NCBI GenBank assembly: GCA_963706795.1
Contig: OY970170.1
Coordinates: forward strand, 690,001-722,000
Origin: Candidatus Saccharimonadota bacterium
Lineage (GTDB): Bacteria; Patescibacteriota; Gracilibacteria; BD1-5; UBA2023
DNA length: 32,000 nucleotides
Reading direction: 5' to 3'
Under the pieces are notes generated by a model. That model searched no databases and was not told where the DNA came from. It saw only the letters and a program-made list of their open reading frames with translations. Position 1 is the first letter of the stretch, and each line of letters begins with the position of its first letter. A program made the position numbers and the translations under genes. Of the stretch, positions 1-32,000 are shown piece after piece.

Positions 1-1848
1 GAGTGGCAGATCCTTTCCTTTTGCCATAATCGAGTCGAGCTTACGGAAGACAAAATGTGCGTGCTCGCTTTCGTAGATCGACTGCCCGACGCAGATCTTT
101 GTGCCATAAAATTTATTGATTCCTTCAAAGCGTGAAGCGGTATTGACGGTGTCGCCGAGCGCAGTGTATTCAATCTTTTTCCCTTCACTTCCGATATTAC
201 CAACGACGGCCTGTCATTTGTTGAGACCCATACGGACAGAGATTTCAAAGCCAAATTGGGATTTGAATTTTTCGTTCATTTTCGCGATAGCTTCCTGTTG
301 CAGAATCGCTGACTTACAGGCGAGATAGGCCTGACGATCCTCGAGCCCGAAGGCTCCCCAGATCGCCATAACGGCATCACCTTCATATTTATTGACGAAT
401 CCCTGCTCGTGGATGATGATATTTGAGACTTCTTTGAGATATACTGAGAGGAAACTTACGAGCTCTTCTGGCTCCATGCGCTCCGAGATGGTTGTAAAGC
501 CAGCAATGTCTGAGAAAAAAAGCGTGACTTCTTTGCGGACTCCTCAGAGTTTTACTTCTTGATAATTGGAGAGTACGGCAGTTACGAGCTCTTCGGCTAA
601 GTATTGCGAGAGCGTATTTTTGAGAAGGCGCTTTCCTTTTTCTTCATAGATATATTTGTAACTCGTCACGGCGATCGCGGTGAGCACGACCACCATAATA
701 ATCTCAGTCGGGTGGAGGAAAATCTTGGATGACATACTAAACACCACCAGATAGAAAAATCCACCAATTGTCAGTGCAACAAATGAATACGCGAGCTGAT
801 AGATGCGATTTTCGACGTGCATCAAAAATAGTGTCAGTGCGAGTGCTAAAAAGAGGATGATGATATATTCACTTCCTTGAGAAACATACGAAAGAAAGGC
901 ACTATTGAGGATAGTATTGACGAGATTGAGATGCACATTTACTCCATATGTAATGCCAATCGGAGTAAAAAACTCGTCATGCAATGCGGTTGCGGTCGCT
1001 CCAATGAAGATAATTTTGTCCTTCACCAAAGCGGGATCAAAGGTGTCATTATAAATATCCACGAATGAGATCGTCGAGAACGAAAGATCTTTTGGGATGT
1101 AGTTTATAAGTACTTCGTTTTTGTTCGATTGAGAGAGGGGAATGTATTCATATTTTCCGGTATGAAATTTGAGATATCACTCATAGTCGAGAGCTCCAGT
1201 ATTGACGTTTGTATTGATCGCATTCGCTGTATCGAGATATGTTCGCATTGTTGCGAGCGAGAATGGCTCATATACTGTTCCACTGTTAGTCTTGATGATC
1301 GGCGCAATGCTATATACCAGACCATTCGTACTATCAAGAAGTGGCTGGAAGTATCCGATCGATTTTGCGGATTCGCGGAGTTTTTCGGTGGGATAGATGA
1401 GCTCTTCTCATTTGGAACTGCGAGCGATGGACATTCCAATGGTGACATTACCAGCTCGCTTGATAGCAGCTGCGAGAACATCATCGCCATCGGCCTTCTC
1501 AGAAAAAAGTACGTCTATTCCAATTGCGATCGCTCCATGCTTCATGAGGTTGTCGATCGCCTGGGCGTAGTACTCTCGTTTAAATTCTTGCCAGCGTCCA
1601 AGACCACCCCTGTCGCCATCAAGAAGCGTTCTATCATCGATCGCCACGAGCGATATACTCTGATTTCGCTCTCTTGGATGCCACGGGATCTCCATTGAGA
1701 AGAGAATATTTCGAATCCCGAGATTCGAATATCGTACGACCGTCGCAAACGGATAAATATTTGAGATGATTCCCACAACGAAGAGTACGAGCGTGGTGAT
1801 GAGTACTGAAAACAGCCACTTATTTCCGATGAGCGAACGATTTTTCAT
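1..1848 (-). CDS. CHASE2 sensor-domain class III adenylate/guanylate cyclase (C-terminus runs off window start), read with UGA=Gly
   Basis: ORF-track fragments 1408..1848, 544..1062 and 214..477 share one frame. I hand-translated the gaps and found only TGA (1408-1410, 1177-1179, 544-546, 214-216), with no TAA/TAG. The N-terminus has a TM helix and a CHASE2-like extracytoplasmic region (SLVAIDDRTL...GIDVLFSE). A block of hydrophobic helices follows, then cyclase-homology motifs FFSDIAGFT, YEGDAVMAIWG, VVGNIGS and YTALGDTVNTASRFE. Confidence 0.85.
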
Positions 1849-3185
1849 TATTTCCCAGAGGTAATGGAATCGATCGTACTATTGAAGTTTTTGATGTCCC
1901 GCATGATACTGTCTGTGTCGAGCTTAAAGGTTTTTTGTGCCCATTCGGTATCTGAGAGAATATCAAATCCTGTCATTTTCTTCCATTCGGCGATTTGTGC
2001 ATTAAAGGCGTCGGTGATCGATTTTGGAAGAGCATCCTGAATAGACTTGAGGTCTGTCGCATTTGCTCCGTTTTTGATGTATTCTTCAATACTCTGACGG
2101 AGTTTTTGTGTGCGCTCTGGTGAGTCCTGTGCCATACTTGCCCAGCTCTCATAGAGGGCCGCACGAGCAAAGTAGTCTTGGTATTGCGCGCGTTCGCTTG
2201 CAGGGATGATTTTTTCGAGAACATCACGAACGGCGATTTTTGCATCGACGTTCGCTCCAGTATCCTGAAGCCCTGAGAGTACTTCGTAGATAGCATAGAC
2301 CGACTGTGCATCCTGACCACCGAGCTGAGCTACCTTTTTAGGATCCACGAGGATCTTGATATTGCTTCATTCAGAAGATACCGTAAATGGCAGTTCGGCC
2401 GTCGGCATTCCAAAGAAATTTCTGAGGATAAATTGGAGCTTTTCGACATCGGAGACATTGTTATAGTCGTCGATCAGCTTTTTAAATTGCGTGAGGCGTT
2501 GAATAGAGAGCTTATCGTCTTCGCTGAGATTGAGTGTATTCCATACAAGATCGAGAGCGCCTGGTGGAATATTATTCAAGACATTATTGATATCGACGCT
2601 TGAACCGGCTGTGACTTGATTGAGCACGGTTCCACTGTTGTCGGCAATCGTAATTGCGTGGTCTACTGTATGGACATAGCCTTGTTCAGTATTGATTTCA
2701 AAGACTGTTCCGCGGACTGCGGCGATCTTGGTGTCATTGTCGAATCGTTCCTCAAAATGCGAATCAGGATCGAGATAGCGAGCAATATTTGACCAAGTTT
2801 TTCCTTCAGTAAGTGAAAAATTAACCTTTGTTGCATTGTTTTGCTCTTTTTTGAGCTCATTGATCGAGATATTTGTCTGCTCAGCCAGGCGTGTGACGCT
2901 TCCATCAGGCCAAAAAAGTGTCGCAGTGGACTGTGCAAGGGTACGAATACGATCGTTTTCCTGAATATTAAACCGATCATGGATCTCGAGTGTCTTGCTC
3001 GTATCTCATCGTCTGACGATCACTTTTCACTCAGTACAGAGCACGTACGGGTCAATACGCGTCACGCTGATGCTTCTCCCAGAAGTCCGAGAGACGTCTA
3101 CAAAGAGTAAAAATACAATAGACGCAACGAGTGCGACGATCAGCGTGGAGACAAAATTCCGTCGAAAGAATGTCGAAATGCGCAT
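1848..3185 (-). CDS. FecR-domain membrane-anchored protein, co-operonic with the CHASE2 cyclase
   Basis: I hand-translated from the ATG at 3183-3185, which has an in-frame TAA just upstream. The N-terminus has a TM helix (LIVALVASIVFLLFV). FecR-like motifs are present (LFWPDGSVTRLAEQTNISI, IAAVRGTVFEI). There are three in-frame TGA (3027-3029, 3006-3008, 2367-2369). The TAA stop at 1848-1850 overlaps the cyclase ATG (1846-1848) by 1 nt. Confidence 0.7.
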
Positions 3186-3259
3186 GTCGAATTAGAAAAA
3201 AGCAAAGTTTTGGGTATTGTACACGAAAGTTTTTCCCCCACAAGCACGTGAATCCTCGG

Positions 3260-3655
3260 ATGCAATATATTCTCGCTCTTCTCATCCTCGTAATTGTCTA
3301 CGAGGTATATTTGGTCGTGTACTATAAATATCAGGATTTCCAGGTAAATACCTATATGCAGAGCCTCGAATGAGAGAATCTGCATATCTATGATTCGATC
3401 GAAAAAAAGAAGGAATACTTCGCTTCAGTTCAGACAAACGCCTATCTTGATCGCATCATGAAGGGTTCACAAAATCGCAAAAATCCAGGCGAAGAAGCAA
3501 TATTTCTCATCGACGAGAAAGAAGTCGCCGACTACAAAAAACTCGACACAACCGAGATTATTCTCTCAGCCAAAAAAGATCTTGCCAAAACCTATGGTAT
3601 GAGCAATAGAGAGAAGTGGGTGTATTATTTCTTAGGTGTAGATACGCGGGATTAG
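3260..3655 (+). CDS. Small single-pass membrane protein, possibly DivIC/FtsB-like septum formation initiator
   Basis: The gene starts at ATG 3260 and joins ORF fragments 3131..3373 and 3458..3655 (same frame) across TGA 3371-3373. It ends at TAG. The N-terminus has a TM helix (ILALLILVIVYEVYLVVYY), followed by a coiled-coil-like stretch and a ...NAYLDRIMKGSQNRKNPGEEAIFLI segment that resembles the FtsB/DivIC C-terminal motif. The function is a weak call. Confidence 0.45.
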
Positions 3656-3862
3656 AGGGAGGCTCAAAATAACTTCGAACTTCATGCTTAAAACTGTGCT
3701 CCTTGTTTGGAGTACTTGCCAGTACACCAAACTGCGGTGCTCGTTTTGCACATGAATTTCTTTGTTCTTTTGAGCCTCAGTGGATATTGTTGTCTCTTGA
3801 ATCGGTCACGGCCGCGCTGCGATGGGAGATTTTGTAGGATTGAGCATTTAACACAATCAAGT

Positions 3863-4594
3863 ATGAAAAAATTCGGAATCCTTGTTCTTGTGTTTTTGCT
3901 TGCTTCATGTGCATCTGAGAGAGTGCCACTTGGCGAGACAGCAAAAGAGTCATCGCAAGAGACCATAAAAGCATCATCTGGATGAGTCGTAAATAAGCCT
4001 CCAGTTTTTTGAACGCTTAAATGTGAACGAAAGAGCGGTGTCGAATCAAACTGGACAGATATATATAAAAAAGATATTGATCCAAGCTATCCAAGCGGAG
4101 TTTGGCTCGTCGAAAAATGTGCGGATGAGGGCGAACAGTGAATGATCGCCCTATTGACTCGTACATATTGGGATCCTGTATTTGTGCGGCGCCTTTGACA
4201 CCAGTGAATACTTCAAGAGGCAAAAACTGCATATGTTGGTTTTCAGAAACTTGGGAATTTCTATGGAGGACATAGTAATCTTGAGTCTATTCTGCGAAAA
4301 GTATCACAAAATGATGCATCAAAACAGGGCTTCCGTAAGCGAAATGGTGATACTATAAGTGTCCAGTTCTATAATTTTATTCTCGCAACTGAGACAAAAA
4401 ATTACCTTAAAAAGCAAAAAAATATTTCCTACTGCGAACGACAGGGCTATTCGGAGCAGCCAATTTGTGTAGCCGATATCGAACTCGAATATAATTTCGT
4501 CACGAATATTGTTCGTGAAAAGAAGGTATGTACGTACTACATAGATGGTGTCTCTGAGTCCAAAAAGGTTCTCGAGCCGTGTATTACCTTCTAA
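3863..4594 (+). CDS. Hypothetical Cys-rich lipoprotein
   Basis: The ATG at 3863 gives MKKFGILVLVFLLASC, a signal peptide with an L-A-S-C lipobox. The frame stays open for 243 codons to TAA 4592-4594 if five in-frame TGA (3983, 4010, 4139, 4196, 4205) are read as sense. I found no TAA/TAG on hand translation and recognise no family. Confidence 0.7.
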
Positions 4595-4601
4595 ATATAA
4601 T

Positions 4602-4625
4602 AAATCCCCTCATTTGAGGGGATTT
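4602..4625. terminator. Bidirectional intrinsic terminator hairpin between convergent lipoprotein gene and ssb
   Basis: The sequence aaatcccctc-attt-gaggggattt forms a perfect 10-bp stem. It is flanked by A/T runs on both sides. Confidence 0.7.
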
Positions 4626-4643
4626 ATTATTCAGGCACTTAGC

Positions 4644-5108
4644 CTAGAACGGAATATCTTCGATGTGGATTTCTTCTTCGATCTTTGGGGCTTTCTTAGA
4701 CTTTGCTGCAGGAGCCGAGTCCATGCCTTCTGATGATGAGTATCCGCTGTCTCCCATGCTGTCGTCACCTCCTGCCGCTCCACCTGAGAGCATAATGAGA
4801 TTGTCGCATACGATTTCAGTTCGATATTTCTTAACACCAGCCTGATCGTCCCAGCTTCGAGTCTGAAGGTATCCTTCAATGTAGACCTTCTTTCCCTTTG
4901 CGAGGTACTGTTCTGCAATTCCTGCGAGTCCTCGCCATGCAACGATGTTGTGGAACTCAACCTGTTCTTGCTTCATTCCTGCTGTATCTTTCCATACGCG
5001 ATTTGTAGCAACTGAGAAAGTTGCAACCTTCTGTCCGTTCGGTGTCTCGCGGACTTCTGGATTGGCCGTGAGATTCCCGATAATTTGAACCTTATTCAAA
5101 GAGTTCAT
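4644..5108 (-). CDS. ssb: Single-stranded DNA-binding protein
   Basis: This is an intact 154-aa ORF. It has an OB-fold SSB N-terminus (MNSLNKVQIIGNLTANPEVRETPNGQKVATFSVATNR...FHNIVAWRGLAE), a Gly/Ser-rich linker and the canonical acidic tail ending DIPF. It contains no TGA. Confidence 0.97.
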   Translation of the reverse strand: MNSLNKVQIIGNLTANPEVRETPNGQKVATFSVATNRVWKDTAGMKQEQVEFHNIVAWRGLAGIAEQYLAKGKKVYIEGYLQTRSWDDQAGVKKYRTEIVCDNLIMLSGGAAGGDDSMGDSGYSSSEGMDSAPAAKSKKAPKIEEEIHIEDIPF

Positions 5109-5220
5109 GACTATAAAAAAAAGAGCTAAAAGTTTGCGCTACGACATATCATAAAAAAAAACAGCAATAGATCAAGCAGGGTTATTTGCGCAGAAGGAAT
5201 GTCTGTGATAGCATGCCAGT

Positions 5221-6405
5221 ATGAAGGCATTGCTTCGAGCTATTCCCGTTCTTGTTTTTCTCCTCTTTGTACTCATCGACGGAGTATTTTTTGTGGCCGG
5301 ACTTGGTATTTTTGGTTTTCCAGAAATGTTTCAAGAGTATCTGGGCGCGAGTTTTTTTGCGATTTGGGCGATGGTGCAGATTGCGGTGCTCTTTGTGATC
5401 ATGCAATTTATTTATGTACGTCCGATTGCGATGCTCAGGCATGAGATTGCATATTTTTTGGCGGGAGCACGACAGACAAATCGACTCGATGATATTCCAC
5501 TCAATCCAGATCTCGCATATGTTGCGAGTTTTTTTCATCGCAGTCTCGAGATCCTTCGTAACTTTAAAGAAGAATTCCAATCTGGGCGTGTTCTTCGTTC
5601 TGAGGTCGAGCTTGCCGCCGATATCCAAAAGCACGTACTTAAAAAGTCATATCCAAAAGTGCCGCTTCTTGATATTGTTGCTGATACCAAGAGTGCTACA
5701 GAAGTAGGTGGCGATAGCTATGATATTATCACGCAGGGCGACAATACATATATCTATCTTGGTGACGTTACGGGGCACGGCGTGGCATCTGGATTTGTCA
5801 TGATGGTGGTGAATGCGCTCATATCGGGATTTTCAAAAATGCTTGTCAGTTCGGCCGAAATTATTGCTCGAACTAACGAAATCCTCAAGCCGCGAGTAAA
5901 ATCTAATATGCTCATGTCGCTTCTCATGGTGCGCTGGAATGAGTCAGAACGCAAGCTCTATATGACTGGTGCCGGCCACGAATACCTCATTATTTACAAG
6001 AAAAAACAAAACGAAGTCTACAAAGTAAAATCTGGAGGTGTTGCTCTCGGTATTACTAAAGACGTCTCAAAAATCCTTAAAGAAGTCCAGATTTCGTTCG
6101 AGCCAGGAGACTGTATTGTACTCTATACCGACGGTATCACTGAAGCCCGCAACGGAAACAAAGAATCTAATCTCATGTTTACGGTTGATCGTCTCGTCCA
6201 GACAGTGAAAGATGCAGGTGATAAAACGGCACATGGACTCTTTCGCCACATAACAATTGAGCTGTCGAAGTTCATGGGCTATAACCATAAACAATTTGAT
6301 GATATAACCCTCATCGTAGCTCATTACAGAGGTGATACTCCATCGGATCCTGAGCTCACGCGAGACATCGAAAAGGAATATATTACCGAATGGAATTGGC
6401 ACTAA
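5221..6405 (+). CDS. Membrane-anchored SpoIIE/PP2C-family (RsbU-like) serine phosphatase
   Basis: This is an intact 394-aa ORF. It has two N-terminal hydrophobic helices and a HAMP-like linker. A PPM/SpoIIE domain follows, with motifs ATEVGGDSYDI, YLGDVTGHGVASG, MTGAGHEYLIIY, VLYTDGITEA and DDITLIV. Confidence 0.9.
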   Translation: MKALLRAIPVLVFLLFVLIDGVFFVAGLGIFGFPEMFQEYLGASFFAIWAMVQIAVLFVIMQFIYVRPIAMLRHEIAYFLAGARQTNRLDDIPLNPDLAYVASFFHRSLEILRNFKEEFQSGRVLRSEVELAADIQKHVLKKSYPKVPLLDIVADTKSATEVGGDSYDIITQGDNTYIYLGDVTGHGVASGFVMMVVNALISGFSKMLVSSAEIIARTNEILKPRVKSNMLMSLLMVRWNESERKLYMTGAGHEYLIIYKKKQNEVYKVKSGGVALGITKDVSKILKEVQISFEPGDCIVLYTDGITEARNGNKESNLMFTVDRLVQTVKDAGDKTAHGLFRHITIELSKFMGYNHKQFDDITLIVAHYRGDTPSDPELTRDIEKEYITEWNWH

Positions 6406-6506
6406 ATCTTGAGCAGACCATGTTCCTCCTTCGTGTAAAGGTAAAAGCCCTGTCCATCTTTGCCTTTCGACGCTTCACTTGCTAGAATAGAACCAATACA
6501 ATCCAT

Positions 6507-8456
6507 ATGTCAGATACTCAATCAGTTCTCCTTGAACTCGTCGCAAAAAACTATACTGGTGATGCAGAAGGCCACGAAAAGCCTCTCTATGATCGAAGTG
6601 TCGCAGCAGTTCTCGCTCCCGAAACCATCTCTACTCCGGTTGCTTCGACTCCAGTTCCCGATATTTCTGAGTCTCCGTCTGACATAGAAGTCTACGATCC
6701 CAAAAAGAAACTCACGAAAGAAGAAGCTGACGCGATCCGCAAAGGTGAAAAAGAATACCAAGAAGCGCTCGCATTTATTAAGGATACGATTTCACCATCG
6801 ATGATGAAGGTCGATGCACGTCAGATCCAGATCGGAGACACTTATATCCGATCGGTTTTCACGTACGCATATCCAGACTTCCTCGAAGGAAACTGGCTTT
6901 CTCCGCTCATCAACTGGGACATCAAGTTCGACATGTCGATGTTCATCTATCCGATCGAAGGAGCATTCGTGATGAAATTCCTCAAAAAACGTCTTACTGA
7001 ACTCTACTCAGAGCGCTCGATCAATATGGATAAGGGTCTCATCTCAGATCCGGCACTCGATGCACAAATCCAAGACGTTGAAGAACTCCGCGGAAGTCTC
7101 ACGCGTGGTCAGGAGCGATATTTTCACTTCTCGATCTACGTAACTGTCTACGGCGATAGCGAAGAACACCTTAAAAAGCTCAGCAATACCTTTGATTCGC
7201 TTCTCTCAGGACGAAATATTCTCACGAAGCAGGCATTTCTCCGTACTGAGCAGGCCTTTATTGCAACGGGGCCATTTTGTAAGGACGAGGTTGGTGTCTA
7301 CCGTAATATCTCAACGAAGGGTCTCTCGACGACTTTCCCATTTACTTCGAGTTCACTCTCGCAGGATGATGGTATTCTCTACGGTATCAATACGCACAAC
7401 AATTCACTCGTCATTTTCGATCGATTTAAAACCGAAAACGCAAATATGGTCGTTTTCGCCAAATCTGGTTGAGGAAAGTCGTTTGCTGTAAAACTCGAAA
7501 TCCTCCGCTCGCTCATGCTCGGAACTGACGTTATTGTCATCGACCCAGAAAACGAGTACAAAGCTCTCGTCGATACTGTTGGTGGAAGTTATCTCAATAT
7601 CAATCTCAATTCGAACGAGCGCATCAATCCATTCGACTTGCCCCGTGCGATGAAGGATACTGAGACAAAACCAGGTGACCTCCTTCGAGGTTCGATCATC
7701 AATCTCATTGGCCTCATGAATCTCATGCTCGGCAAATGTACGCCAAGCGAAGAAGCCATTCTCGAAAAAGCCCTTACAACTGTCTACTCACTCAAGGGTA
7801 TTACCTACCAAGATGACGATGTAACCGGCAAAGAAATCCCTGTGATGAAGGATCTCTACTCGGTTCTTGAGACTATGGATGGTGGAAAAGGTCTCTGTGA
7901 GCGCCTCGAAAAATATGTCTATGGAGTATTTGCTGGAGTCTTCTCCGAGCAGACAAATATCTCGATGAATGACGGACTTATGGTTTTCTCAGTGCGTGAT
8001 CTCGATGAGATTCTTCGTCCTGTTGCCATGTACATCCTCCTCGGTTACGTCTGGAATGTTACGCGTTCTGCTCAAAAAAAACGTCTCCTCGTCGTAGACG
8101 AAGCCTGGAATATCATGCAGCATGAGGACAGTGCTAAATTCCTCTTCGGTCTCGTTAAGCGAGCTCGTAAATACGGACTTGGGGTTACTACGATCACACA
8201 GGATGTCGAGGACTTCATGGGCTCAAGCTACGGAAAGGCGATCGTGACGAACTCTTCGATCCAGCTCCTGCTCAAGCAATCTCCCGCTTCGATCGATGTG
8301 CTCCAAAATGTATTTAAGCTCACCGACCAAGAAAAATACATCCTCCTCAATGCCGCAGTCGGAAGCGGACTCTTCTTTGCCAGCAATGAACATGTCGGTA
8401 TTCAGGTTCTCGCGAGTTATTTTGAAGAAAAAGTAGTCACCACAAAGCCAGGATAA
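6507..8456 (+). CDS. VirB4/TrsE-family (AAA_10-like) secretion/conjugation-type ATPase
   Basis: ORF fragments 6507..7472 and 7515..8456 are in the same frame. The single interruption is TGA 7470-7472, inside the Walker A motif (VVFAKSG-[TGA]-GKS). Walker B is LLVVDEAW and a TQ sensor is present (TTITQDVEDF). The N-terminal half resembles VirB4/TraC-type proteins. Confidence 0.85.
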
Positions 8457-8606
8457 GAGATTTTCGTAAAACGCGATCTTTGCGCTCAGGCTTTACGTTT
8501 CCTCGTTCAACGTACAGTCGTACGTCTCACTCCGGTACGCAGTCTTCGCACAAATCTCATCGTTTTTCGAGAAATCTCGGCACACTTGTTCGATATATTT
8601 GTTGTT

Positions 8607-9197
8607 ATGAAAAACTCACTCGTTCTCGTGGGAGGTGGCGATGCCTTCGATACAGATGAAGAATATCTCGCTTCTCTTGCGCAGATACCGTGGGCGATTG
8701 CTCCGTATAACTGACAAAAGAAGCGTTGGCGAGTAAATATTGCTGACAAATATCGTGTACTCACCGATGTCTACATGCCCGAGCTTCCTTGTAAGCAAAA
8801 TGCAAAATATCGTGAATGGAAGCTCCTCTTTGATCAGCTTGCTTCTGGCTTAAACGAAAAAACTATCTATGTTGGACATTCGCTTGGAGCGAATTTCCTC
8901 GCAAAATATTTCTACGAATCCGGCAAGCACGGCAAAACCCTTCATCTCGTTGCTGGATGCTATGGGCTCGGTGGTGGATTTGATTTGCCGGATGATCTTT
9001 CGGTGCTTCATGACCAGTTCGACGCTGTCCATCTTTGGCAATCAACGGATGATATGGTGGTTGGATTCGATGACTTCCAAAAATATAAGACCTCACTTCC
9101 AAAGGCGATCCCACATGTATTTGATGACCGTGGACACTTCAGTACCGAGACATTTCCCGAACTCGAAGAGCTCATTACAGCCGAAATCGACGACTAA
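8607..9197 (+). CDS. Small alpha/beta-fold serine hydrolase (YdeN-like)
   Basis: ATG 8607 is in frame with ORF 8775..9197 across TGA 8712-8714. The nucleophile elbow is GHSLG. Later D and H candidates are WQSTDDMVV and FDDRGHF. The product is about 196 aa. Confidence 0.7.
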
Positions 9198-9229
9198 AAT
9201 AATCCCTCAGGAATTCCTGAGGGATTATT
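9198..9229. terminator. Bidirectional intrinsic terminator between convergent hydrolase gene and argS
   Basis: The sequence aataatccctcagg-aatt-cctgagggattatt is a perfect palindrome. It is flanked by an A-run and a T-run. Confidence 0.75.
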
Positions 9230-10999
9230 TTACATCTCACTTGGCATGTCGATTGCGAGTATTTCGAATGCTTTTTTGAGTGTTTCTGCGGTTTTCTCTA
9301 CGAGCGAGAGTCGGAAGGCACGAAGCGCTTCGTTTGATTCTTCGAGAAGTTTTGGTGTGTGAACGTAAAAAGTACTGAATGTCGTCGCGAGTTCGTAGGC
9401 GTAGATCGCGAGGAGGTGAGGTTTATATTTTTCGGTTACTGCACGCACGCTCTCTTCAAATCGAGCGAGCTTTAAGAGAAGGAGGCGATCAAATTCGCTT
9501 GTTTCGACATCTGCGAGAGTATCCCATTTGATTCCTGCTTCTTGTGCTTTTGCGAGAACTTTGGTAGCGCGAACATAGGCGTACTGGATGTATGGACCAG
9601 AGTGACCTTCAAAATTGAGAGCTTTATCCCAGTCGAAGGTGATGTCCTTTTCGCGGTCTTGCATGAGATAGGAGTACTTGATAGCCCCTACTGCAATAGC
9701 TTGGATATCAGTGTCCTTGAGATTTGAGCCCTTGGATTCGATAATGGCTTTGGTGCGATCAAATCATTCATCTAAAAGCTTGTCGAGGAAGATCACTGTA
9801 CCATGTCGTGTCGACATTGCTCCTTCCTTGAGCCTGATGTATCCGTTAAAAGCATGGAAGAGTTCGACGCCTTCGGTGAGCTCTGGCCATGCCATATGTG
9901 CAATAGCAAAAGCCTGGCGCATATGAAGTTGTTGGCGAATGTCGATACAATAGATGAGTTTCGATGGATTCCATCCGTTTGTGAGGCGGTATTTGATAGC
10001 GGCAAGATCCGATGTCAGATAGAGACCGGTTCCATCCTTTTTTTGAAGTACACATGATGGAATTTTGGATTCTTCCGAAAATACTACTCCGACTGAGCCA
10101 TCCTCATTCTGTGTGGCGATGCCCTTCTCGACGAGTTCTCGAACGATGGACTTCATGTCGAATTCTAATTCGGGGTAGTCCTCATTATTTGGCCGAGGAA
10201 GCCCCATTCCTTCATAAAAACTCTCTCCTATATTGTAGGTCGCCTGAACATTCAGGACCCTGAGCTGGATCTCAATTGCCTGGATGGATATCTCAGTAAA
10301 CCATTTCCAAAGGTGCACTGACTCTGTGTTTCATTCCGCAAGGAGTCGGAATTCGAGCCTGCAGGCTTCATCGATTACTCCAGAAGTGTCTTCGTCAATG
10401 AGTTTCGTTGCTTTTTGGTAGAGCTCAACGAGGTAATATGAACCTCGTTCTGTGATCTGTAGGTCACTCTCTGTCTGCGTTGCGCAGACTGCATTATTTT
10501 TATATGCCCAGAGAATCTTACCAAAGACGCCCCCCCAATCACCAAAATGTGAGTCTCCAATGACTTCGTATCCAAGATAATCGTGTGCATTTATCAGTGC
10601 CTGACCGATACAAGGAGTACAAATATGGGCGATATGGAGCGGTTTTCCAGCATTTGCGCCTATATAGTCCACCACCATAGTCTCGCCATTTGGCTTCATA
10701 GCCTCTGTGCTAAGCTTCTCAAGAAGCTTACGGGTGAGTTCTTCGCCAAGTTTTACGTTTACATATCCACCCATTCCCTGGGCAGATATAAATCGTGGAT
10801 CGGCAGCAATTACTGCCGCGAGCTTTGTCGAAATAGCATTTGGTGCCTCGCGGAGAGTTTTTGACAGTCCGAAGATATTGATAGCGACATCGCCTAACTC
10901 AGCCTTGGGAGGCTGATCAAACGAAAGCGATGTTGTGTCGATTTGGTCTCCAAAGGAGTTTTTCACAATATCTTGTAGTATGTCTCTCAAAATGTGCAT
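9230..10999 (-). CDS. argS: Arginine--tRNA ligase
   Basis: Fragments 10331..10999, 9764..10318 and 9230..9664 share one frame. They are joined across TGA 10331-10333 and 9764-9766, and the gaps I hand-translated contain no TAA/TAG. A HIGH-like motif (PLHIAHI) and an MSTR motif (GAMSTRHG) are present. The DALR anticodon-binding C-terminus ends in ...PSEM. Confidence 0.95.
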
Positions 11000-11572
11000 A
11001 TGTTGTCTAAAAATGGCGAAAAAAGATTGGTGCTATAGTATCGATTTTGGCTTACTGATCAAGAGTAATTAGAATTATTTTTTTGATCATCCCTGTCGAA
11101 ATTGGCATGTTTTTGAATAAAAACATATAAATTATCTCATAAGAAATATAGATTGTTCACTTCTCTCTATAGAGAGAAGAACTCAGTATAGAATTTATTC
11201 TTTAACATATATCTATGAATGTACAAGATCTGGATAGTCGCACGCTTTCGAGAAGTGCGCTACTATACATATGTACCTGAAGCAGGAAGCAAATATCTTC
11301 TCTCTTCAGAGCTCATTAAGAAAGCCTCACTCTCCCAGAACGGTAATCGGATTGTCACCCGAGAGCCTCCACTCAAATAAATATAAACACGTCTTGCGAT
11401 ATAAACACCAATAGACCTACCAATAGGAAAGAGATGGTATCCTGCAGCTTTTACTAAAAGAGCCCCAAAAAGCCCTATTTTTTTTAAAAAGATTCAGAAT
11501 AACCTCTCTTTCCAACAAAAATAACAAAAAGTCGGAAAGGTAAATATGCCGAGTTACAAATTTTTCCCCAAG

Positions 11573-11757
11573 GTGGAGTGAGCCAGTGTAATTACACTGT
11601 AGAGCCTGACAAGCTCAATCATACTACTTGGTTTCTCCACTTTATCAGGGGTTTCGACCCCTCTTCGGATGAGATTAAGAGCATAAGTTGGTATCGGTCC
11701 GCCTACCAAGGCTAACGATAACCAGAACAAACCTCGCTTCGGCGAGGTCTTTTTTTT
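11573..11757 (+). ncRNA. Unassigned structured RNA candidate ending in an intrinsic terminator
   Basis: No credible ORF lies between 11000 and 11841. The plus strand shows nested helices: gtggag (11573-11578) pairs with ctccac (11635-11640), enclosing the perfect palindrome cagtgtaattacactg (11584-11599). Further hairpins are aggggtttcgacccct (11647-11662) and ggtatcg...cgataacc. A GC-rich terminator follows. The 5' boundary and the family are unknown. Confidence 0.25.
11731..11757 (+). terminator. Intrinsic terminator
   Basis: The stem-loop acctcgc-ttcg-gcgaggt (UUCG tetraloop) is followed by a run of eight T. Confidence 0.6.
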
Positions 11758-11762
11758 CTTAA

Positions 11763-11787
11763 AAATCTCCAAAAAGGGGATTTTTTT
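11763..11787 (+). terminator. Second, weaker tandem terminator-like hairpin
   Basis: The hairpin aaatctcc-aaaaa-ggggattt contains one G-U pair and is followed by a T-run. It lies about 55 nt upstream of the methylthiotransferase start. Confidence 0.4.
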
Positions 11788-22400: not shown

Positions 22401-25400
22401 ATAGGTGATTTTGATGGTTTCTTTTGGTCCAATATCAAAACCTCCGAATTGCAGATCAAATGGTCCATCTAAAACATCCGAAAGCGCCCCAGAAAATACC
22501 TGACCAGCACCATTCGTACGAGTATAACGAGGCGTGTCTGTTTTGCTAAATACTCCAGAATCATTCGAATCAAGATAGCTGACATTTCGGAGTCTGTCTG
22601 TCCCTGAGTTCGTGAGTGAGACAGTGATTTCTACGCGATCACCCGATTGAAGCGTACCGCCATTCTTGTCTTTATAGGTTTTGGAGGCGATGATATTTTT
22701 GGCATCGAGGAATTCAGATCTGAGATAGGTCTTGGTTTCTTCGATGGTATTATTGCTCAGTGCATCGGTATTTACTGCGTCATTTGCCGCTTTATCTGAG
22801 ATATCGGCGATACCGCTTTTGATTTTTTCGATGAGCGCAGTGTTTGGGTTTCCAGGATTTTCTGGATCATCGCCAACTCATGCCTTTAGGCGAATAGTAG
22901 CAGCTGCCTGACTTGAGACTGCTCGTGAAGTCTTGGCAACGTAGTAGAGTTTGCTGTCGAGTAGACGCTTCTGATCCGTTGCAGAGAGCGCGCTGCTGGT
23001 TGAGTTGTCAGTCGTGCTCGGGTTTTGACCAAGTGCAAGTGACTCGTTGTAATAGTCGGTCTGATCAGGGCTCTGCACTTCTGGAAGTCCGTCCCAATGC
23101 ATGGCACCACCTTCGTTCATAGCTTCGCTTGTGAGCTTGAGCCCGAGGTCAGTTGCGAGTACTTTTTTAGTAAACTTTGTCCCAGAAGCATCCGATCCTC
23201 CGTACAAAATCGAGAGCTCGCCTGAGTCATCGGTAATAACGATATCATCTGCACCGTCCTTATCCATATCAAAGGTTTCGAGCTGCATGATGCCGCCTTT
23301 TATGACTGCTGGATTGCCGGATTCATCAAAGATGCGTGGTACTGTTCGTGAAAATTTTCCCTTGTTGTTGTCGAGAATGATGAGCTTGCCCTTCTTATCG
23401 ACCATCACGATATCCGTGTAGCCATCGTGCGCGAAATCACCCGTTCATTTGCGACTCTTACCAGCATCGGCAACATAGGCGAGATAACCAACGCTCTTGA
23501 TAGTTCCACTATAGTTTTGGAGAAGCTCGACGCGACCATCATCATAAAATACAACGATATCAGGATATCCGTCGCCATTCGTGTCGATCTGAGAATATGA
23601 TTCGATGATACCTTCTGCGCTTTCGGTGAGTTTTTGACCAATGGTGCGATCATATTTCGTCTTCCCGTTTTCAATGCGTGGAAGCTGGGCGACAGGATCA
23701 CCGAGATTGATCATGCTGTAGGTGGCAGCAAATTTCGTTGCTTCGCCTACTGAGGCTCCGGCTGCGAATTCGAGGAGACTAGTCGATCCATTTCCAAATC
23801 AGATTCCTTGTTTTGTGCGGTATTCCTCGAGACCGGTTTTTGTCGCGCTTCCGACCATTTTTTGATTAACGGAAGTCGTGGCATCTTCGATTTCGTAGAG
23901 TGTGATTCCGCGAGGTCATTTCGAAGAATTCCCAAGGCTATTTGAGCTTGTGCGGTAGCGACTTGAGATTTTTTCGAGGACGAGGGTGCCAGGATTGGCA
24001 GCGACGACATTATTTACTTGGTCAGGATCAGCAACTTCGACATGATTTGCATTCCATTTCATGGCGAGATATCCGATCTTGGTTGTACCAGAGAGGATAG
24101 TAAATCCGAGAATATTTTTGGTCTGATCTTTGTCGTATTCGACAGTGACAGATGGATATTTGCTCACATTTCCAGTTGGATCGATCTCAAATACTTTGGT
24201 ACCACCAACTTCGAGAGCGAGAGTTCGCCCCTTCGTTACTTTGCTCTGACCAAGGGCTTTGAGGAGCACAAATCTGTCATTGGCTGTAGACTCGCAATTT
24301 GAGAGCGTCTCGGAACCATCCGCATCACATGGCACGAGAGGTGTGTCATTTTGGAGATTTAAGTGGATGCGAGCGACATTTTCGCGTAAGAATGGATCGT
24401 AGACTGAGATCGACGAATGCCCATTCGCACTCTCGAGTTCCATTCTCGCAAGCGAACTCGAATCCCCCTGAGCCGTGAGTTTCCCACCTGGCGTGAGTGA
24501 CAGGATCGAGTGCTTTTCAGAGGCATCGTTGAGTGTACTCGTCACCGCAAGCGATCTGCTATCTGGCGCAAAGAGGATTTCTCCAGCGAGATAATTAGGA
24601 ACCGTGACATTACCATAATCCGCACCCAAGAGTGTCGTATAGAGCGCGTTGTAATTGGTATTCTGAAGCTTTTCCTTATTCCACAAATAATATGTATCAA
24701 CGAAGGCGACGTTATTCGAATATCCGTGAATCGTGAGGTTGGCGCCAGATTTGTCAGTAACCGTAAAACTATTGTTCTCGAGTCATGGTGCCACCTTTAC
24801 GCCGTAATAGAGCGTTCATGGCATACGTGAAACGAGCAGATCCGTTCGTGCGATTCCATCTTTAAAATCTACAGTATCCGCACCGAGACGACCAAACTGT
24901 TTGGCGCTGTCAGGTATGAAGAATGTAGCCTTCACTCCCGAAGCGTGGTTGTAGGCGACATTACCATATCGGTCGAAGAGCTTGGCAGTCGCGGTTGTTT
25001 TTACTCAGACGCGTGCCTCGAGCGATGTCTGATCAGCCGAAAGACCAACTCGCATCGCCACATCAGGAAGGACGGTTACAGTATTTGATTCGATATCTTT
25101 GATCCCTGGGATTTGGATATCGAGGGCGAGATTTTTGGCAGCGAGATATTTTGGAGTGAGCGTGATCTTGTCAGTATTTACTCCATTTTTGATCGAAACA
25201 AAATTGGTCGAGAGCACCCCAGAATTCTTTGGAAAATCGAGCGAAGCCACTCCAGAAAATCCATCAATGAGCGCACCATTTTTGTCGACTACCTTAATAT
25301 GCACTTCGTGTGGATCTTTACCTGCAACGATCGTATCACTGCTATCTACATCCACATGGATCTTGGCATAATCCACCGAAGTCAGTTTGATGCTCGTCTC

Positions 25401-28400
25401 GAGATTGCTTCCGTCGAGTGCGATCTTGATAGTCTCGGTTTCACCTCCATTATTTGAAGTCAGATCAAAGCTCGAAAATCCATCCACCGTCGTCTTTTGG
25501 ATTTTGGTATCTTTGTTATCAAGGAAGTATGCACCGCCCGACAGTGTGCCATTGAGCTTGAGGAAATTTCCCTTTGCAATGTTATTAAATTGGTCGATTG
25601 CACGTACGAGAACCGTATCTTTTTGTCATCGCACAAATACGCTCGAGCTCGCAATAGCATCGAGCCGAATTGGTTTTGCAGGAAGTACTGTAAATGTCTT
25701 GTCAGCAAATCGGTCTGAGCTGTCAGTAAATTCAAATCGGTAATTGCCAGCGCGCGTGAGCAGTGGTCCTTTGTAGCTAAAACTACTCGAAGTAATTTTT
25801 ATTGGTCCTTCTACTCGTGTGTTATCGACATCATCATAGATATTGAGTTCGATCGGGAAACTCATATTCATGAGATCGCCATTTGCCTTTTTGGTTGTGA
25901 GTGCAAATTCGAGCGAGTCTGCGTTACCTGCAGTGATTGTGGACTCCACTGATTTCACTCCATTTTTCTGGCTATTGGATGCGATATCGAGTGATTCGGA
26001 TCGAACTTCGAGTGTGAGTTCGTTGGAGGTTTTTGTGAATGCGACAGCATTATTTTTGTCCTTTGGCGCGACGGTTGCATCGAGGATCACATCGACATCT
26101 ACGTTTTTTGCCTGGATGGTGTATTCGGCAACGCCCATTTCGGCACGTACGCTGATCGGCGTAAAGTTGATATATTTTTGAAGGGTTTCAATCTTTGAGC
26201 TATCACCGCTTCCATTACGAGCATAGACGATACTGCTCTTGCCTCATTGATAAGCAACGACGCGCTTTACATCGAATGAGACTTCGTTAAACGAATCATT
26301 CGCGAGAACCTTGTCATCTTTTTTGAAGGTTGCCCTGATCGGAGTGCTTGCGTTGTATGCAAGACGTTTGTGGTCTGCAGAAAGATCGATATTCCCGTCT
26401 TTGATCCATTCATATCCGTCGATAATTCCGTTATTATTCGCATCAACTTGCCAGTCAGGAATACCGTCCTTATTCGCATCAACTGCCGTAAAGAAATCTC
26501 GATCCTTCGCTCTATTATTGGCCGGTGCAACGCCACAAGAACCTGCTCCAATTGTTGGAGGAAGTATTGATCCAAGCCAACAAAATACTGCAGGAAGCCA
26601 TTGCCAAATAGGAACTCCTTCTGGTGGTCCACACTTAAAGACGGCTTTGTTTTCATTGAAATCTCCCACATTGGCTCCGTCGAGGAGATTTTGGAGAGTA
26701 TTTGCTTCGTTCTGAATATCGCTGATTTCTGGTGGCAGAATACCCTTGGCAGCAGGATCTATTTTCAGGAAGAGATTTTGTGCATCACCCGATCCAGCAA
26801 TATATGCCATTTCATAGTCCGACTTGTGACCAGGAAGCGGATAACTCGAATTTCCATCTCGATCAAGTCCATGCTCGAGCACAAATGCGTATTTTGAAGT
26901 CGCATTCCTGAGATTATACCAAAGCACTGAGTCAACAATGCTGTTCATAGCGACTTCATTCGAAGTCAGAACATTATAGAGATCAACCTTAGCAGCTGGG
27001 TATTCTCCGGATTTTAAGAGATCATAGACAGCTTTTTTCTCTGCCGTAAGACTCGCGGGACTTTCGCTCGTGATGAGAGCATTAATCTCGACACTTTTTG
27101 CATCAAGCTCGGCTTTGATTCGTGCTTTGACCTTGTCAGTAGTGAGATCGACTCATTCTGGCCAAGTCAGGCGATAAAAATTTGGAAACTCGATTTTGAC
27201 GATATTTCCCTTTGGCGAAATAAAATCGATATAGCGATTTTTGTCTGCTGCAAGTGACGGCGTTGCAAAATTTTTGAGTGCTGCGCCGTATTCCTCGTCC
27301 GTAGGTGAGATGTGCTCAATCCAAGAAGGAATCTTTTTAAAATCTCGTGATTCGTGGACTGTGCTGTCTATTGGACCATTTTCTCAGGTGCTGGCACATG
27401 ATGAACCATAACTCTTCACGCCAGTTCCGCCGAGTTTGATATCGGTGATCGTACAAGACTTTGGTGATTTTCCTAAGATTGCGGTCTCAAAATCAAGAAC
27501 ATCACCGAGTTCTTTGTGGCCATTTGCGGACTCACCAGTTCATTTCATTGCACAGACAAATCGCGTCCCTTTGCTAGCGTCTGGGTAGTAGTATGTCGTG
27601 CTGCGTGATCCCACATCAACATCCGTTGCAGAATACGGATCCGCCAAAAAGTTTGTCTTGAGACAATCCGCTGGCGATGCAATCTGAAGCGCGCCTCCTG
27701 GAGTGATTTCCTTGCTTCCACCGAGATCAAATGTAGGCGAAATATATCCAGAATACTTGTTGTTTTTAAGGCTGAGTTCTGTAGAGATCTTATCTTTGTA
27801 TTTTGCGAGATTTTCGGGTGTTGCGTTTTTGGTGATGTCGGCAATATCTGCCGCCGAGAGACTATTCGTCTTGAGATTGAGTGGTGAATTTCCTCCCCAA
27901 GTGTCCAGTGTATATGCACTTCCATCAGCCGCAAAGCAGGCTCCTCAACCGAGTCCGACAAATGGTGTGACATTTGGATTGCTCAGTGCGTCGAGATCCT
28001 TCTGTACATTTTGCACGTTATATCCACGATTCGCCTCTACTGGAAGCGTCGATCCTCGGACAATGCTACAATCTCCCGCGGTTTCGAGACTGTCTGCGCG
28101 ACGTCCGAAGAGATAGTTGCTATAGCTTTTTGGCTCTGTGCTAAAAAGAGGCATACCGTCTGGTCCGACGAGTCCGCCAGTTTTTGTATATGTGGTTGGT
28201 ACGGCAATATCTCGCGAGAGACCATTTTGGACGATCTGGGTGATTTCGGATTCAAAGATGCTATTCGTATCTTTGATCGACTTCTTCATAAATTCGTCCT
28301 GCTTGGATATCAGGACAGGTGCGACATCGGCTCTTACATTTGTGCCATCTCCGTAGCGCCCAGTGTTATAGACAAACTTGAGGATGTCACCGAGATATTT

Positions 28401-29435
28401 CGCATTAAAGACTTCGAGGAATTGCTTTACGGATTTATCAATTGCTGCCTTTGTTTGGACATCTGGCGCATTCGAAAAATCGATAGAATCCTTGCCAAGT
28501 GATCATGCAAGTGCTGCGACTGCAGGATCATCTATCGCACTGATTCCAGTATCTTGGAAACTCTGATAGCTGTCATAGAGCGTCTTTGCGAGATGCTTAT
28601 TAAAGCGGTTGTAGGCGATATCTTCGAGATTTTCGAGATAGAGACCGTAGGCTTTCCAATTGGCGAGGCTCGTGGATTCTTGGTCGTGATACGCATCGAG
28701 ATAAAAAATCGAAGGCTCGCTCAGCGAAGAGCTAAAAGCCCCTTCGCGATTATAAAAATCATGTGTCTTATCGAGGAATTGCCCGAGACGCTGCTTGTCC
28801 TGATCATGAGAACCTGTATTTGGCATGATTACTCCGTGCCAAATCTCTGGGGTATCTTTGATATTTGCAGTCTTTGAGACCTCGTAATATCCATCCTCGG
28901 GACTGTATTCGAATACTTTGTCATCAAAATCCGTGTACGGATAAATGCTCAAAAAACTATCCGTCCCGCTATGCACAACTGGCAAAGGAAGTGCCCCTAT
29001 AAGTACCGTTCCTACCAGTCTCGAAATCCCATTGCCGTCACCCTGATAAAACAGTTTTTCGTTCAGTGCTGCGATATTATGCGGAGAAACATTGTCCGGA
29101 ACCTCTACAATGAGTACTCGAGTATTGCCGAGTGCATTTTGGATATCGTTCGCATAACGCTTGATCTTGGATTTGATATCGCCCGAATTTGTATCCGAAC
29201 TCACAATGATCGAAACAAGGTTTGGTGCCTCGCTTCATGCCGCCTGAGTCAACGGAATCATCGGAAACTGGACTGTTTGGACGAAAAATATCGAAAAAAT
29301 CAGAAATCCCGACAGGAATTTCTTGAATGGAATCTTGGAAGCCTTTAAAAACATGGTTCTTCGAGTATGGATGCGAACTTTGGGACTTTTGGCGCATACT
29401 ATCATTTTCGATGTCATTTGCAAAGTTTTCACCAT
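16386..29435 (-). CDS. Giant signal-anchored surface/secreted multidomain protein (about 4,349 aa), adhesin-like
   Basis: Thirteen track fragments are all in one frame: 29235..29459, 28503..29204, 27945..28289, 26244..26948, 25626..26138, 25005..25487, 23916..24686, 23445..23714, 22878..23408, 21426..21881, 18609..21320, 17934..18281 and 17193..17654. I hand-translated every gap and the 3' extension to 16386. They contain 27 TGA, no TAA/TAG, and protein-like sequence throughout. An in-frame TAA lies upstream at 29472-29474, and the stop is TAG 16386-16388. The N-terminus has a hydrophobic anchor (FKKFLSGFLIFSIFFVQTV). The start is ambiguous: ATG 29435, 29405 or 29354. Confidence 0.9.
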
Positions 29436-29545: not shown

Positions 29546-29559
29546 ACGCCTCGCTTCTT

Positions 29560-29635
29560 GGGTTCGTAGCTCAGTAGGTAGAGCAGGGCCCTTTTAAGGC
29601 CAAGGTCGCGGGTTCGAGCCCCGCCGAACCCACCA
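29560..29635 (+). tRNA. tRNA-Lys (anticodon UUU), CCA encoded
   Basis: I folded the cloverleaf by hand. The acceptor stem GGGTTCG/CGAACCC is perfect. The D-stem is GCTC/GAGC. The anticodon loop is CT-TTT-AA on a 4-bp stem with one mismatch. The T-arm is GCGGG-TTCGAGC-CCCGC. The discriminator is A, followed by CCA. Confidence 0.95.
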
Positions 29636-29642
29636 AAAAGCA
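29616..29642 (+). repeat. Direct repeat copy 1 (3' end of tRNA-Lys plus 7 nt of flank)
   Basis: gagccccgccgaacccaccaaaaagca is a 27/27 match to 29772..29798. Similarity continues (tcaaaa) after a 1-nt indel. Confidence 0.85.
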
Positions 29643-29648
29643 ATCAAA

Positions 29649-29678
29649 ACTCCCATCTTTCACGAGAGGGGAGTTTTT
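29649..29678 (+). terminator. Intrinsic terminator after tRNA-Lys
   Basis: The stem actcccatct pairs with agaggggagt (one mismatch) around the loop ttcacg. TTTTT follows. Confidence 0.55.
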
Positions 29679-29771: not shown

Positions 29772-29798
29772 GAGCCCCGCCGAACCCACCAAAAAGCA
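29772..29798 (+). repeat. Direct repeat copy 2 (orphan duplicate of tRNA-Lys 3' end; att-like)
   Basis: This copy is identical over 27 nt to 29616..29642. The upstream sequence does not fold into the rest of a tRNA. Confidence 0.85.
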
Positions 29799-29912
29799 TC
29801 AAAAATCGAGTCGACTCCGTCGTATTTCGATGAATGAATGCAGTTTCATAAAAAGAAGTAATATGCCTGAAGTTTCCTGTATATAATCCATCATCTATTT
29901 TCATGCTTCTGT

Positions 29913-30995
29913 ATGACCAAAAAAACTAAAATACTCTTAGGGACTGCAGCTGTCGCATTGTGTGTCCTCATCATCTGAGTAGTCTTTACTCTGAGACACG
30001 AGATACAAGCAGAGCAGAGTATCGAGGTATCGTTTACACATAAAAAAGATACCCTTGCAGGAACACTCCTGCTTCCAAAGGGGTCTGGTCCATTTCCTTT
30101 GGTTATTTTTGTCCATGGAGATGGTCCACAGACGAGGGGTTTGGAGAATTACGCACTGATTATCAATGAATTGCTCCGATCCTGAATCGCCTGTTATTCT
30201 TGGGATAAGGCAGGTACTGGTGCATCATCTGGAAATTGGCTGAACCAAACCATGAGTGATCGTGCTGATGAGGCTATCTCACTTTTGAAATCTATTACAA
30301 AACGTCAGGATATCGACCCCAAATCTATTGGCTTCCTTGGCTTTTCACAGTGAGGTTGGGTAATACCCGAGATAGCAAATCGATCAGAAGTCCCCGCTTT
30401 TTATATGACTGTCGGTGCTGCGGTGAATTGGAGAACTCAGGGTGAATATTTCACTCGTACTCGATTGGCCCGTGCGGGCATAGTCTGAGAGCAGGCAGAT
30501 CGGGTGATTTTGTGGCAAAAAAATGCTCCTCAGCCGAGTCTCTCGCGAGCCTACTGAGACTACGTACGTGCGTTTGAATTGTATAAAACATCTATTTCCG
30601 TACCAGAGGGTGCAAGTATTGAAGTTCTCTCAGAGGAGAGATACCATTTTATAGCGCTCAATATTGATTCGGATGCGACCCAGTGACTCTCTGCTATAAA
30701 AAAACCACTCCTAGCCATCTGGGGAGAGGATGATCTCAATGTGGATGCAATAGAGAACGCTCATACATACCGTACCATACTCGAAAAGCAAACTACGAAG
30801 TGAAGTATGGTACGAGTATTTGCTGGTGCAGATCATAAAATGCTCAGATCTGATGCATACGCAGCACAACTTCCGTCAGAGTGGACTATGCTCATGAGTG
30901 TGCGATATTTCTTTGAAGCGGAGTCAGCATTTGTCCCAGGCTATCTTCAACTGCTTACTCATTGGATTAGAGAGATACCGCAATCTCCTAGGTAA
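29913..30995 (+). CDS. Membrane-anchored alpha/beta hydrolase (Ser-Asp-His)
   Basis: ATG 29913 is in frame with ORF 30807..30995. I hand-translated 360 codons and found seven in-frame TGA and no TAA/TAG. The N-terminus has a TM helix. The motifs are VIFVHGDG, the nucleophile elbow G-F-S-Q-[TGA 30351-30353], LAIWGEDD and GADHKM. Confidence 0.85.
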
Positions 30996-31026
30996 GAACC
31001 CTTTTTAATTACATTCATTTAAAAAC

Positions 31027-32000
31027 ATGGAAGCAAACAAACTGCAAAGCATCCTAGATGCTGTCGTTGATAATAGAAAAATATGGTGAACCTCATTTTC
31101 TATTTCTTACAAAGGAAAATCTTGGAGTGGAACAAGTGGTAATTTTTCTGAAAATGATCAATTCTTCACTGCGAGTACTACCAAATTGTATACCACAACA
31201 GTACTCCTGAATTTAGAATCTGAAAATAAGATCGATATCAGCGACCCCATTTCCAAATACCTCTCAAATGAGATTATACATGGACTACATATCTTGGATG
31301 GAATTGAATATTCGGGTGCTCTTACGATACAAAATCTTCTTGCACATACTTCAGGGTTGCCAGACTATTTTCAGCAAGTAATAGACAAAAAGGGGAGTCT
31401 GCTCGACCTGATCTCAAAAAATACAGATATATCTTGGACATTCGAACAAGCGATCGATTGGTCGAAAAAAATGAAACCAAAATTTATACCAAATAAAAAA
31501 GGATCCGCCCACTATTCGGATACCAATTTTCAACTGCTGGGAAAAATCATAGAAACAGTTACAGAAACAAGCCTAGAAGCAAATTATGAAAAATATATCT
31601 ATACGCCGTTGCAACTAAAGAACACGTATTTATATCGTGATTTTCTCGATCAGAAGCCGAAGAATATCTACTTTAAAGAACACGAACTAACGATTCCGAA
31701 GGCCATGGCATCATTCGGTCCAGATGGATGAATCGTGTCTACATCGCAAGAATTACTCAAATTTCTGATGGCTTTTTCAACTTGAAAACTATTCCCAAAA
31801 TGAAAACTCGCCACTCTTCAGGTATGGAATCCTGTATTTTTCCCTATTGAATCAGGAATTGGTATTCATAGATTCAAACTTCCATGGATTTTGAATCTAT
31901 TTTGAAAAATCCCTACCCTCATAGGGCACTCAGGATTATCGTGAACCTTTGCATATGGAAATACTGATATGGATCTCTATATTGCAGGAACCGTAAATCA
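31027..32000 (+). CDS. Beta-lactamase-family serine hydrolase (PBP/esterase-like), 3' end beyond window
   Basis: ATG 31027 is in frame with ORF 31186..31731. There are six in-frame TGA within the window and no TAA/TAG up to position 32000. The SxxK motif is ASTTK, the YxN motif is YSDTN, and the third motif is GHSGLS-[TGA]-T. Confidence 0.85.

Follow-up and report, generated by a model that had tools for sequence, protein, structure and literature searches.

The 32-kb window analyzed here (the whole stretch of contig OY970170.1 between positions 690,001 and 722,000, renumbered 1–32,000, with a guanine-plus-cytosine (GC) content of 44.5%) almost certainly represents chromosomal DNA of a member of the Gracilibacteria (BD1-5; 'Candidatus Altimarinota' in NCBI; Patescibacteria, or Candidate Phyla Radiation (CPR)) using NCBI genetic code 25, in which UGA is translated as glycine. 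UGA was read through inside conserved genes, coincided with glycine columns in alignments of homologs from outside the lineage and was evolutionarily exchangeable with GGN, not with UGG, and only UAA and UAG terminated translation. The same assignment had been put forward for the entire window in a sequence-only reading, and it was supported by the codon pairs with a related genome, the homolog columns and the gene ends. The six codon positions cited there (five TGA and one GGA at 14895–14897) were all correct.

The open reading frame (ORF) structure of the window depended profoundly on the meaning of TGA. With translation table 11, the stop-to-stop ORFs of at least 100 amino acids (aa) summed up to 15,060 aa, the longest being 938, while with TGA as a sense codon they reached 32,816 aa, with the longest of 4361 codons. 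Control reassignments of TAG or TAA to sense yielded 20,030 and 20,981 aa in ORFs of the same minimal size, respectively, and the longest ORF stayed at 938 in both cases. In nine related loci (L001–L009), all of which carry in-frame TGA, the longest ORF increased strongly when TGA was made sense, while in three standard-code control loci it was unchanged. A new gene call with table 25, proposed as a check together with the original claim, resulted in a coding density of about 92% and intact genes (17 protein genes and one tRNA gene with TGA read through), while table 11 shattered 16 genes into 95 pieces with a median length of 58 aa. The warning that a standard-code annotation of this contig must be badly fragmented was justified, and a 181-aa fragment of this kind is already present in public data.

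Counted from the first ATG of every gene onwards, in-frame TGA occurred 79 times in 14 of the 17 protein genes, in agreement with an earlier count by hand of roughly 80. Neither TAA nor TAG was present in frame (zero each over approximately 9,700 codons of the window genes). The 15 complete genes terminated with TAA (11 genes) or TAG (4 genes) and, as had been claimed, never with TGA. Nine of 11 C-termini were shared with the orthologs from the related genome L001, indicating genuine gene ends instead of a by-product of the ORF definition; the proteins continued past their TGA codons up to these conserved ends.

These numbers bear on the possibility that the standard code is in use and the TGA codons are stops in decaying pseudogenes, artefacts of sequencing or assembly, or codons at which selenocysteine is inserted or readthrough is programmed. 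A public protein collection does contain fragments of this contig called with table 11, but decay or errors would also have generated in-frame TAA and TAG, of which there were none against 79 TGA. Moreover, homology and Pfam domains ran across the TGA codons, and the reading frames were kept in nine related genomes with TGA at differing positions. Assembly error as the source of TGA was ruled out by an independent assembly: the Logan contig L081 (13.9 kb, run ERR12037365) was 100% identical to the window at positions 1–9224 and extended 4660 bases further upstream. No selenoproteome comes close to 79 sites spread over 14 of 17 genes, and cysteine, the usual counterpart of selenocysteine, scored −34 bits at the homolog columns described below. 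The probability of a standard code in this DNA is vanishingly small.

The amino acid encoded by UGA was deduced from a codon comparison with L001 ('Patescibacteria group bacterium Deming_bin.574'), which was found by a genome scan with the methylthiotransferase MtaB and shares 12 syntenic genes with the window (protein identity 65–93%). Codon alignment within conserved context yielded 4806 pairs; 25 of them involved a TGA of the window, whose partner in L001 was GGN in 18 cases, TGA in two, another codon in five and TGG in none. Glycine was thus encoded by 18 of the 23 non-TGA partners (binomial p = 1e-16 with a glycine background of 7.5%). In the reverse direction, TGA of L001 corresponded in the window to GGN 13 times, to TGA twice, to serine codons five times, and to GAG, GAT, GCT and TGG once each. 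The MtaB gene of L001 had GGN at six of the eight TGA positions of the window gene, and in eight further related loci the same positions alternated between GGN and TGA.

The comparison also bore on tryptophan as the residue encoded by UGA (table 4). Tables 4 and 25 produce the same ORF structure, so that coding density cannot separate them, and heuristics based on coding density choose table 4 (bioRxiv 10.64898/2026.05.24.727570). Public gene calls with tryptophan at TGA also exist: a 348-aa protein (P0272) corresponding to the beta-lactamase-family gene of the window, and the listed Gracilibacteria homologs of MtaB (P0001–P0120), 27–47 of which, out of 120, have tryptophan at glycine columns. 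However, TGG of the window was conserved as TGG in L001 in 52 of 54 pairs, while TGA was paired with TGG in none of its 25. Table 4 would also lift the tryptophan content from 0.94% (TGG only) to 1.76%; counting TGA as glycine changed the glycine content from 6.7% (GGN only) to 7.5%, UGA making up about 11% of the glycine codons of the window. The tryptophan in the databases is explained by gene calling with table 4, since in P0272 it occupied exactly the six TGA codons, and the tryptophan at the glycine columns of the MtaB homologs has the same origin. Together with the homolog columns and solved structures considered next, this makes table 4 extremely improbable.

Distant homologs were scored column by column for two proteins. 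The MtaB-type radical-SAM methylthiotransferase (11845–13182, plus strand; Pfam Radical_SAM) contains eight TGA, with the first bases at 12004, 12010, 12130, 12412, 12421, 12862, 12928 and 13147. The comparison covered 71 genes with roughly 30% identity from bacteria that use the standard code, most of them Clostridia. The column of TGA 12421–12423 was glycine in 60 of the 71 homologs and the columns of the other seven TGA were variable; the MtaB paralog MiaB was uninformative, its columns at the TGA positions not being conserved. The beta-lactamase/S12-family serine hydrolase (31027–32000, plus strand; Pfam Beta-lactamase, 5e-40), whose 3′ end is cut by the window end, contains six TGA. Its TGA-free segment 31090–31728 was used as a query and the full-length hits were realigned locally, giving 94 full-length representatives at no more than 55% identity; among ten of them looked up for taxonomy, three clusters were named, with Candidatus Berkelbacteria as the sole organism named. 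Glycine was found in 38, 82, 67, 6, 10 and 78 of the 94 sequences at the TGA starting at 31087, 31729, 31783, 31801, 31903 and 31942, respectively. Over the 14 columns of both proteins, glycine was the sole residue with a positive log-odds score (+8.0 bits), compared with −6.8 for alanine, −34.0 for cysteine and −46.1 for tryptophan. Glycine dominated five of the 14 columns, the remaining ones were variable, and none favored tryptophan.

Comparison with solved structures, for which the three best-matching solved homologs per protein were used, addressed the earlier statement that several TGA fall on invariant glycines. Glycine was indeed conserved in the alpha/beta hydrolase (29913–30995, plus strand; Pfam Hydrolase_4 and related families; seven TGA), where TGA 30351–30353 forms the last glycine of the GxSxG nucleophile elbow (GFSQ-x-G) and was glycine in 3/3 solved homologs, as was another TGA of the same gene at 30183. 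The beta-lactamase-family motif GHSGLS-TGA-T (31942–31944) had glycine in 78 of 94 homologs, and the statement failed for the Walker A motif of the VirB4-like ATPase. In the nucleotide cyclase, TGA 214–216 within the motif G-I-N-T-G was glycine in 3/3 solved cyclases, and TGA 544–546 in 2/3. No solved homolog had tryptophan at the GxSxG elbow or in the cyclase GxNTG motif. The arginyl-tRNA synthetase (ArgRS; 9230–10999, minus strand) had been described as complete only with both of its TGA (10331–10333 and 9764–9766) translated, and three Pfam domains indeed covered both sites. The Escherichia coli enzyme, aligned over residues 29–585, has glycine and alanine there, and L001 has GGG and GGC.

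An internal argument for glycine had been drawn from the protein with two tandem cyclic nucleotide monophosphate (cNMP)-binding domains (14031–15152, minus strand; Pfam cNMP_binding in two stretches; 12 TGA). TGA 14367–14369 of one domain does align with GGA 14895–14897 of the other, but this was the single such pair among seven: in the remaining interdomain pairs with TGA the partner was TGA twice and CGT, GCA, GTC and AGC once each. In the related genome, the syntenic ORF (L001 positions 11715–12512, 266 aa) matched domain 1 only, with 44% identity, which suggests a lineage-specific duplication or loss of a domain in this protein.

Several observations weighed against reading UGA as glycine. 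The five remaining partners of the window TGA in L001 (5/25) were GTC, AAT, ACT, ACA and TCA, encoding valine, asparagine, threonine and serine. TGA stood on columns that are not glycine in the distant homologs at positions 55, 57 and 97 of MtaB and at positions 259 and 293 of the beta-lactamase-family protein. In the VirB4-like ATPase (6507–8456, plus strand; Pfam P-loop_TraG and AAA_10; top solved match VirB4 4ag5, 7e-43), the single TGA (7470–7472, FAKSG-x-GKS) occupies the variable fifth position of the Walker A consensus [AG]xxxxGK[ST], which is alanine in 4ag5 and serine in TrwK and is TGA again in L001; a small residue suits this site, at which glycine is not invariant. A tRNA with the UCA anticodon was detected neither in the window, where tRNA-Lys(UUU) is the only tRNA, nor in L001–L009 and L081, whose scans returned no tRNA of any kind. 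Finally, the evidence for glycine is all comparative. The missing tRNA(UCA) is what can be expected for 32 kb and is no contradiction, and prfB, the gene of release factor 2 (RF2), was also absent from the window, a length of 32 kb saying nothing about it either way. By analogy with the literature on this lineage, UGA would be decoded by a dedicated tRNA-Gly with the anticodon UCA, and RF2 would have been lost, leaving release factor 1 (RF1) alone to terminate translation at UAA and UAG. UGA-to-glycine reassignment, tRNA-Gly(UCA) and loss of RF2 have all been reported for Gracilibacteria and Absconditabacteria (PMC8629427; bioRxiv 10.64898/2026.05.24.727570), and UGA-to-glycine recoding was described for a BD1-5 bacterium in a study that included proteomics (PMC4032931).

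The use of UGA was uneven between the genes (chi-square p = 2e-8 for the TGA share of glycine codons). The lowest shares (0–5%) were observed in the single-strand DNA-binding protein (SSB; 0/15), the SpoIIE-type phosphatase (0/27), the VirB4-like ATPase (1/44), ArgRS (2/39) and thioredoxin, and the highest (24–41%) in the cNMP-binding protein (12/29, 41%) and in MtaB, both hydrolases and the putative lipoprotein (approximately 25%). It is rather unlikely that this pattern is functional rather than a result of drift, either through slow or conditional decoding that tunes expression or as a marker of the residence time of a gene in the recoded genome. The range from 0 to 41% might also be seen as a sign of a dual or context-dependent UGA, mostly glycine but acting as a stop or being poorly decoded in some genes, and slow or leaky decoding is compatible with the window data. 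Yet the 15 complete genes all have a TAA or TAG end whose position is shared with L001, the homology of no gene stops at a TGA, and to our knowledge a dual UGA has no precedent in this lineage; such a dual meaning is very unlikely.

The taxonomic placement relied on the MtaB matches. Among the 120 best matches listed, those with a name were named only Candidatus Gracilibacteria/Altimarinota, taxid 363464 being Candidatus Altimarinota, a phylum in the Patescibacteria group. The nearest genome loci, L001–L009, also agreed with this placement in that all of them use TGA in frame. Judged by best hits only, the window belongs to the Gracilibacteria/Absconditabacteria clade (GTDB class JAEDAM01).

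Three of the related loci (L003, L004 and L008) came from GTDB representative metagenome-assembled genomes designated 'uncultured Candidatus Peribacteria bacterium'. MtaB contained three, three and one in-frame TGA in these loci, respectively, and their ORF content increased 2–3 fold with TGA as sense. They are therefore recoded genomes as well, and their Peribacteria label appears doubtful. As their own genes carry in-frame TGA, these loci were rejected as close standard-code controls.

The first part of the window (1–9197) includes eight protein genes. At its start, a minus-strand gene whose 3′ end lies beyond the window (1–1848) encodes a class III adenylate/guanylate cyclase with a CHASE2 sensor (Pfam CHASE2 2.7e-43, Guanylate_cyc 1e-20) and has four TGA at 1408–1410, 1177–1179, 544–546 and 214–216. 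It is followed on the same strand by a FecR-domain protein gene (1848–3185; Pfam FecR) with three TGA at 3027–3029, 3006–3008 and 2367–2369, the first two being GGA and GGC in the L001 ortholog. On the plus strand, a hypothetical protein (3170–3655) with one TGA (3371–3373) is 86% identical to its L001 ortholog and had no Pfam match. Next to it, a putative lipoprotein with a signal peptide ending in LLASC (3866–4594, plus strand) has five TGA at 3983–3985, 4010–4012, 4139–4141, 4196–4198 and 4205–4207; neither a Pfam match nor an L001 ortholog was found for it. The genes for SSB (4644–5108, minus strand; Pfam SSB 1.5e-37) and for the SpoIIE/PP2C-type phosphatase (5221–6405, plus strand; Pfam SpoIIE 6.8e-40) are both free of TGA. 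Beyond the VirB4-like ATPase gene, a hypothetical, weakly alpha/beta-hydrolase-like protein (8607–9197, plus strand; Pfam match below threshold) has a single TGA at 8712–8714, which is GGT in the L001 ortholog. The cyclase with its CHASE2 sensor, the FecR-domain protein and the PP2C/SpoIIE phosphatase (within 1–6405), together with the cNMP-binding protein (14031–15152), form a set of signalling genes, suggesting that this reduced CPR genome signals through cyclic nucleotides.

In the central part, MtaB is followed by a TGA-free thioredoxin gene with a WCGPC motif (13207–13521, plus strand; stop codon TAA). Beyond the gene of the cNMP-binding protein, the minus strand encodes a membrane protein with a bacterial PH domain (15262–15804; Pfam bPH_2), whose single TGA (15430–15432) is GGC in L001, and a TsaB-like protein (15776–16408) with one TGA (16172–16174) in the motif GPASFTG-x-RI, corresponding to GGT in L001. 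The TsaB assignment is weak: the Pfam TsaD-family score was 22.2 bits, which is below threshold, and no solved structure matched at E ≤ 0.1. The largest gene (16386–29435, minus strand) carries 27 TGA in frame and falls into 28 pieces under table 11; its product is a giant protein of 4349 aa. One FG-GAP_3 repeat was its sole Pfam match above the curated cut-off. Its last 1816 residues are 70% identical to the L001 ortholog, and nine of the 27 TGA could be aligned with L001, five of them to GGA. The protein also has a hydrophobic N-terminal segment and a proline-rich stretch near residue 3270. With starts placed at the first ATG, minus-strand genes overlap by 29 nucleotides (nt) between the PH-domain and TsaB-like proteins (15776–15804) and by 23 nt between the TsaB-like and giant proteins (16386–16408).

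The only tRNA gene of the window, tRNA-Lys(UUU) (29560–29635, plus strand; detected by ARAGORN; Rfam score 71.2 bits), is located between the giant gene and the alpha/beta hydrolase. Its last 20 bases, together with the downstream flank, make up one copy of a 34-nt direct repeat with 91% identity (29616–29649 and 29772–29805, 156 bases apart). This looks like an attachment (att)-type scar of an element which integrated into the tRNA gene or was excised from it.

Between the starts of ArgRS (10999, minus strand) and MtaB (11845, plus strand), a candidate structured RNA of about 550 nt was observed at 11215–11765 on the plus strand. No convincing ORF lies in this region, its identity to L001 is 72% over 588 nt, and its folding energy has a z-score of −4.1. 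Of the 93 predicted base pairs, 18 differ from L001 at both positions and still pair, as in the hairpin GGGGU-UUCG-ACCCC of the window, which is GAAAC-UUCG-GUUUC in L001. Three UUCG tetraloops are present on the plus strand, and a terminator-like hairpin followed by eight T ends the element (approximately 11738–11765). An Rfam scan at E ≤ 1 returned only implausible weak matches, a scan of metagenome contigs for 18-mers of the element gave chance matches only, and an nhmmer search of all other loci was negative, leaving L001 as the only source of a homolog.

For annotation, the outcome is a lesson rather than a discovery: this contig requires table 25, any annotation of it with table 11 is wrong, and table 4 places tryptophan where glycine belongs. 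Both errors are present in public protein data for the same genome. The 181-aa beta-lactamase fragment mentioned above (P0122) ends exactly at TGA 31729 and is a table-11 gene call, P0272 is its table-4 counterpart, and table-11 fragments also occur among the gene calls on L081. The TGA-free SpoIIE protein has an exact match in the public protein data; no exact public match was obtained for ArgRS or VirB4 with either glycine or tryptophan at the TGA, probably because of a different start-codon call.

Among the known systems, selenocysteine recoding shares with the window the translation of in-frame UGA, but the window sites align with glycine and not with cysteine, and no selenoprotein families are represented. 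Table 4, which is used by the Mycoplasmatales and several insect endosymbionts, has the same ORF map with UGA as a sense codon and differs in the residue, which is glycine in the window instead of tryptophan. UGA translated as glycine was already known in Gracilibacteria and SR1 in 2013, and NCBI lists it as a table of its own. The phenomenon described here is the textbook code 25 in the clade for which this table was defined. A variant of it, with CGA and CGG additionally reassigned to tryptophan, occurs in Absconditabacteria (SR1) and some Gracilibacteria (Shulgina and Eddy, 2021; PMC8629427). The window shares with this variant the glycine meaning of UGA and the CPR affiliation, but its CGA and CGG codons are common and aligned with arginine codons of L001 (43 of 52 for CGA and six of seven for CGG, never with TGG), indicating that the additional reassignment is absent. 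No difference was found from table 25 itself, which PMC8629427, in the passages citing Campbell et al. (2013) and Rinke et al. (2013), gives as the code of Candidate Division SR1 and Gracilibacteria: the window has UGA as a sense codon aligned with glycine, UAA and UAG as the sole stops, Gracilibacteria/Altimarinota as the nearest named relatives, and a GC content of 44.5% which lies inside the range of 0.21–0.53 reported for the table-25 clades (PMC8629427).

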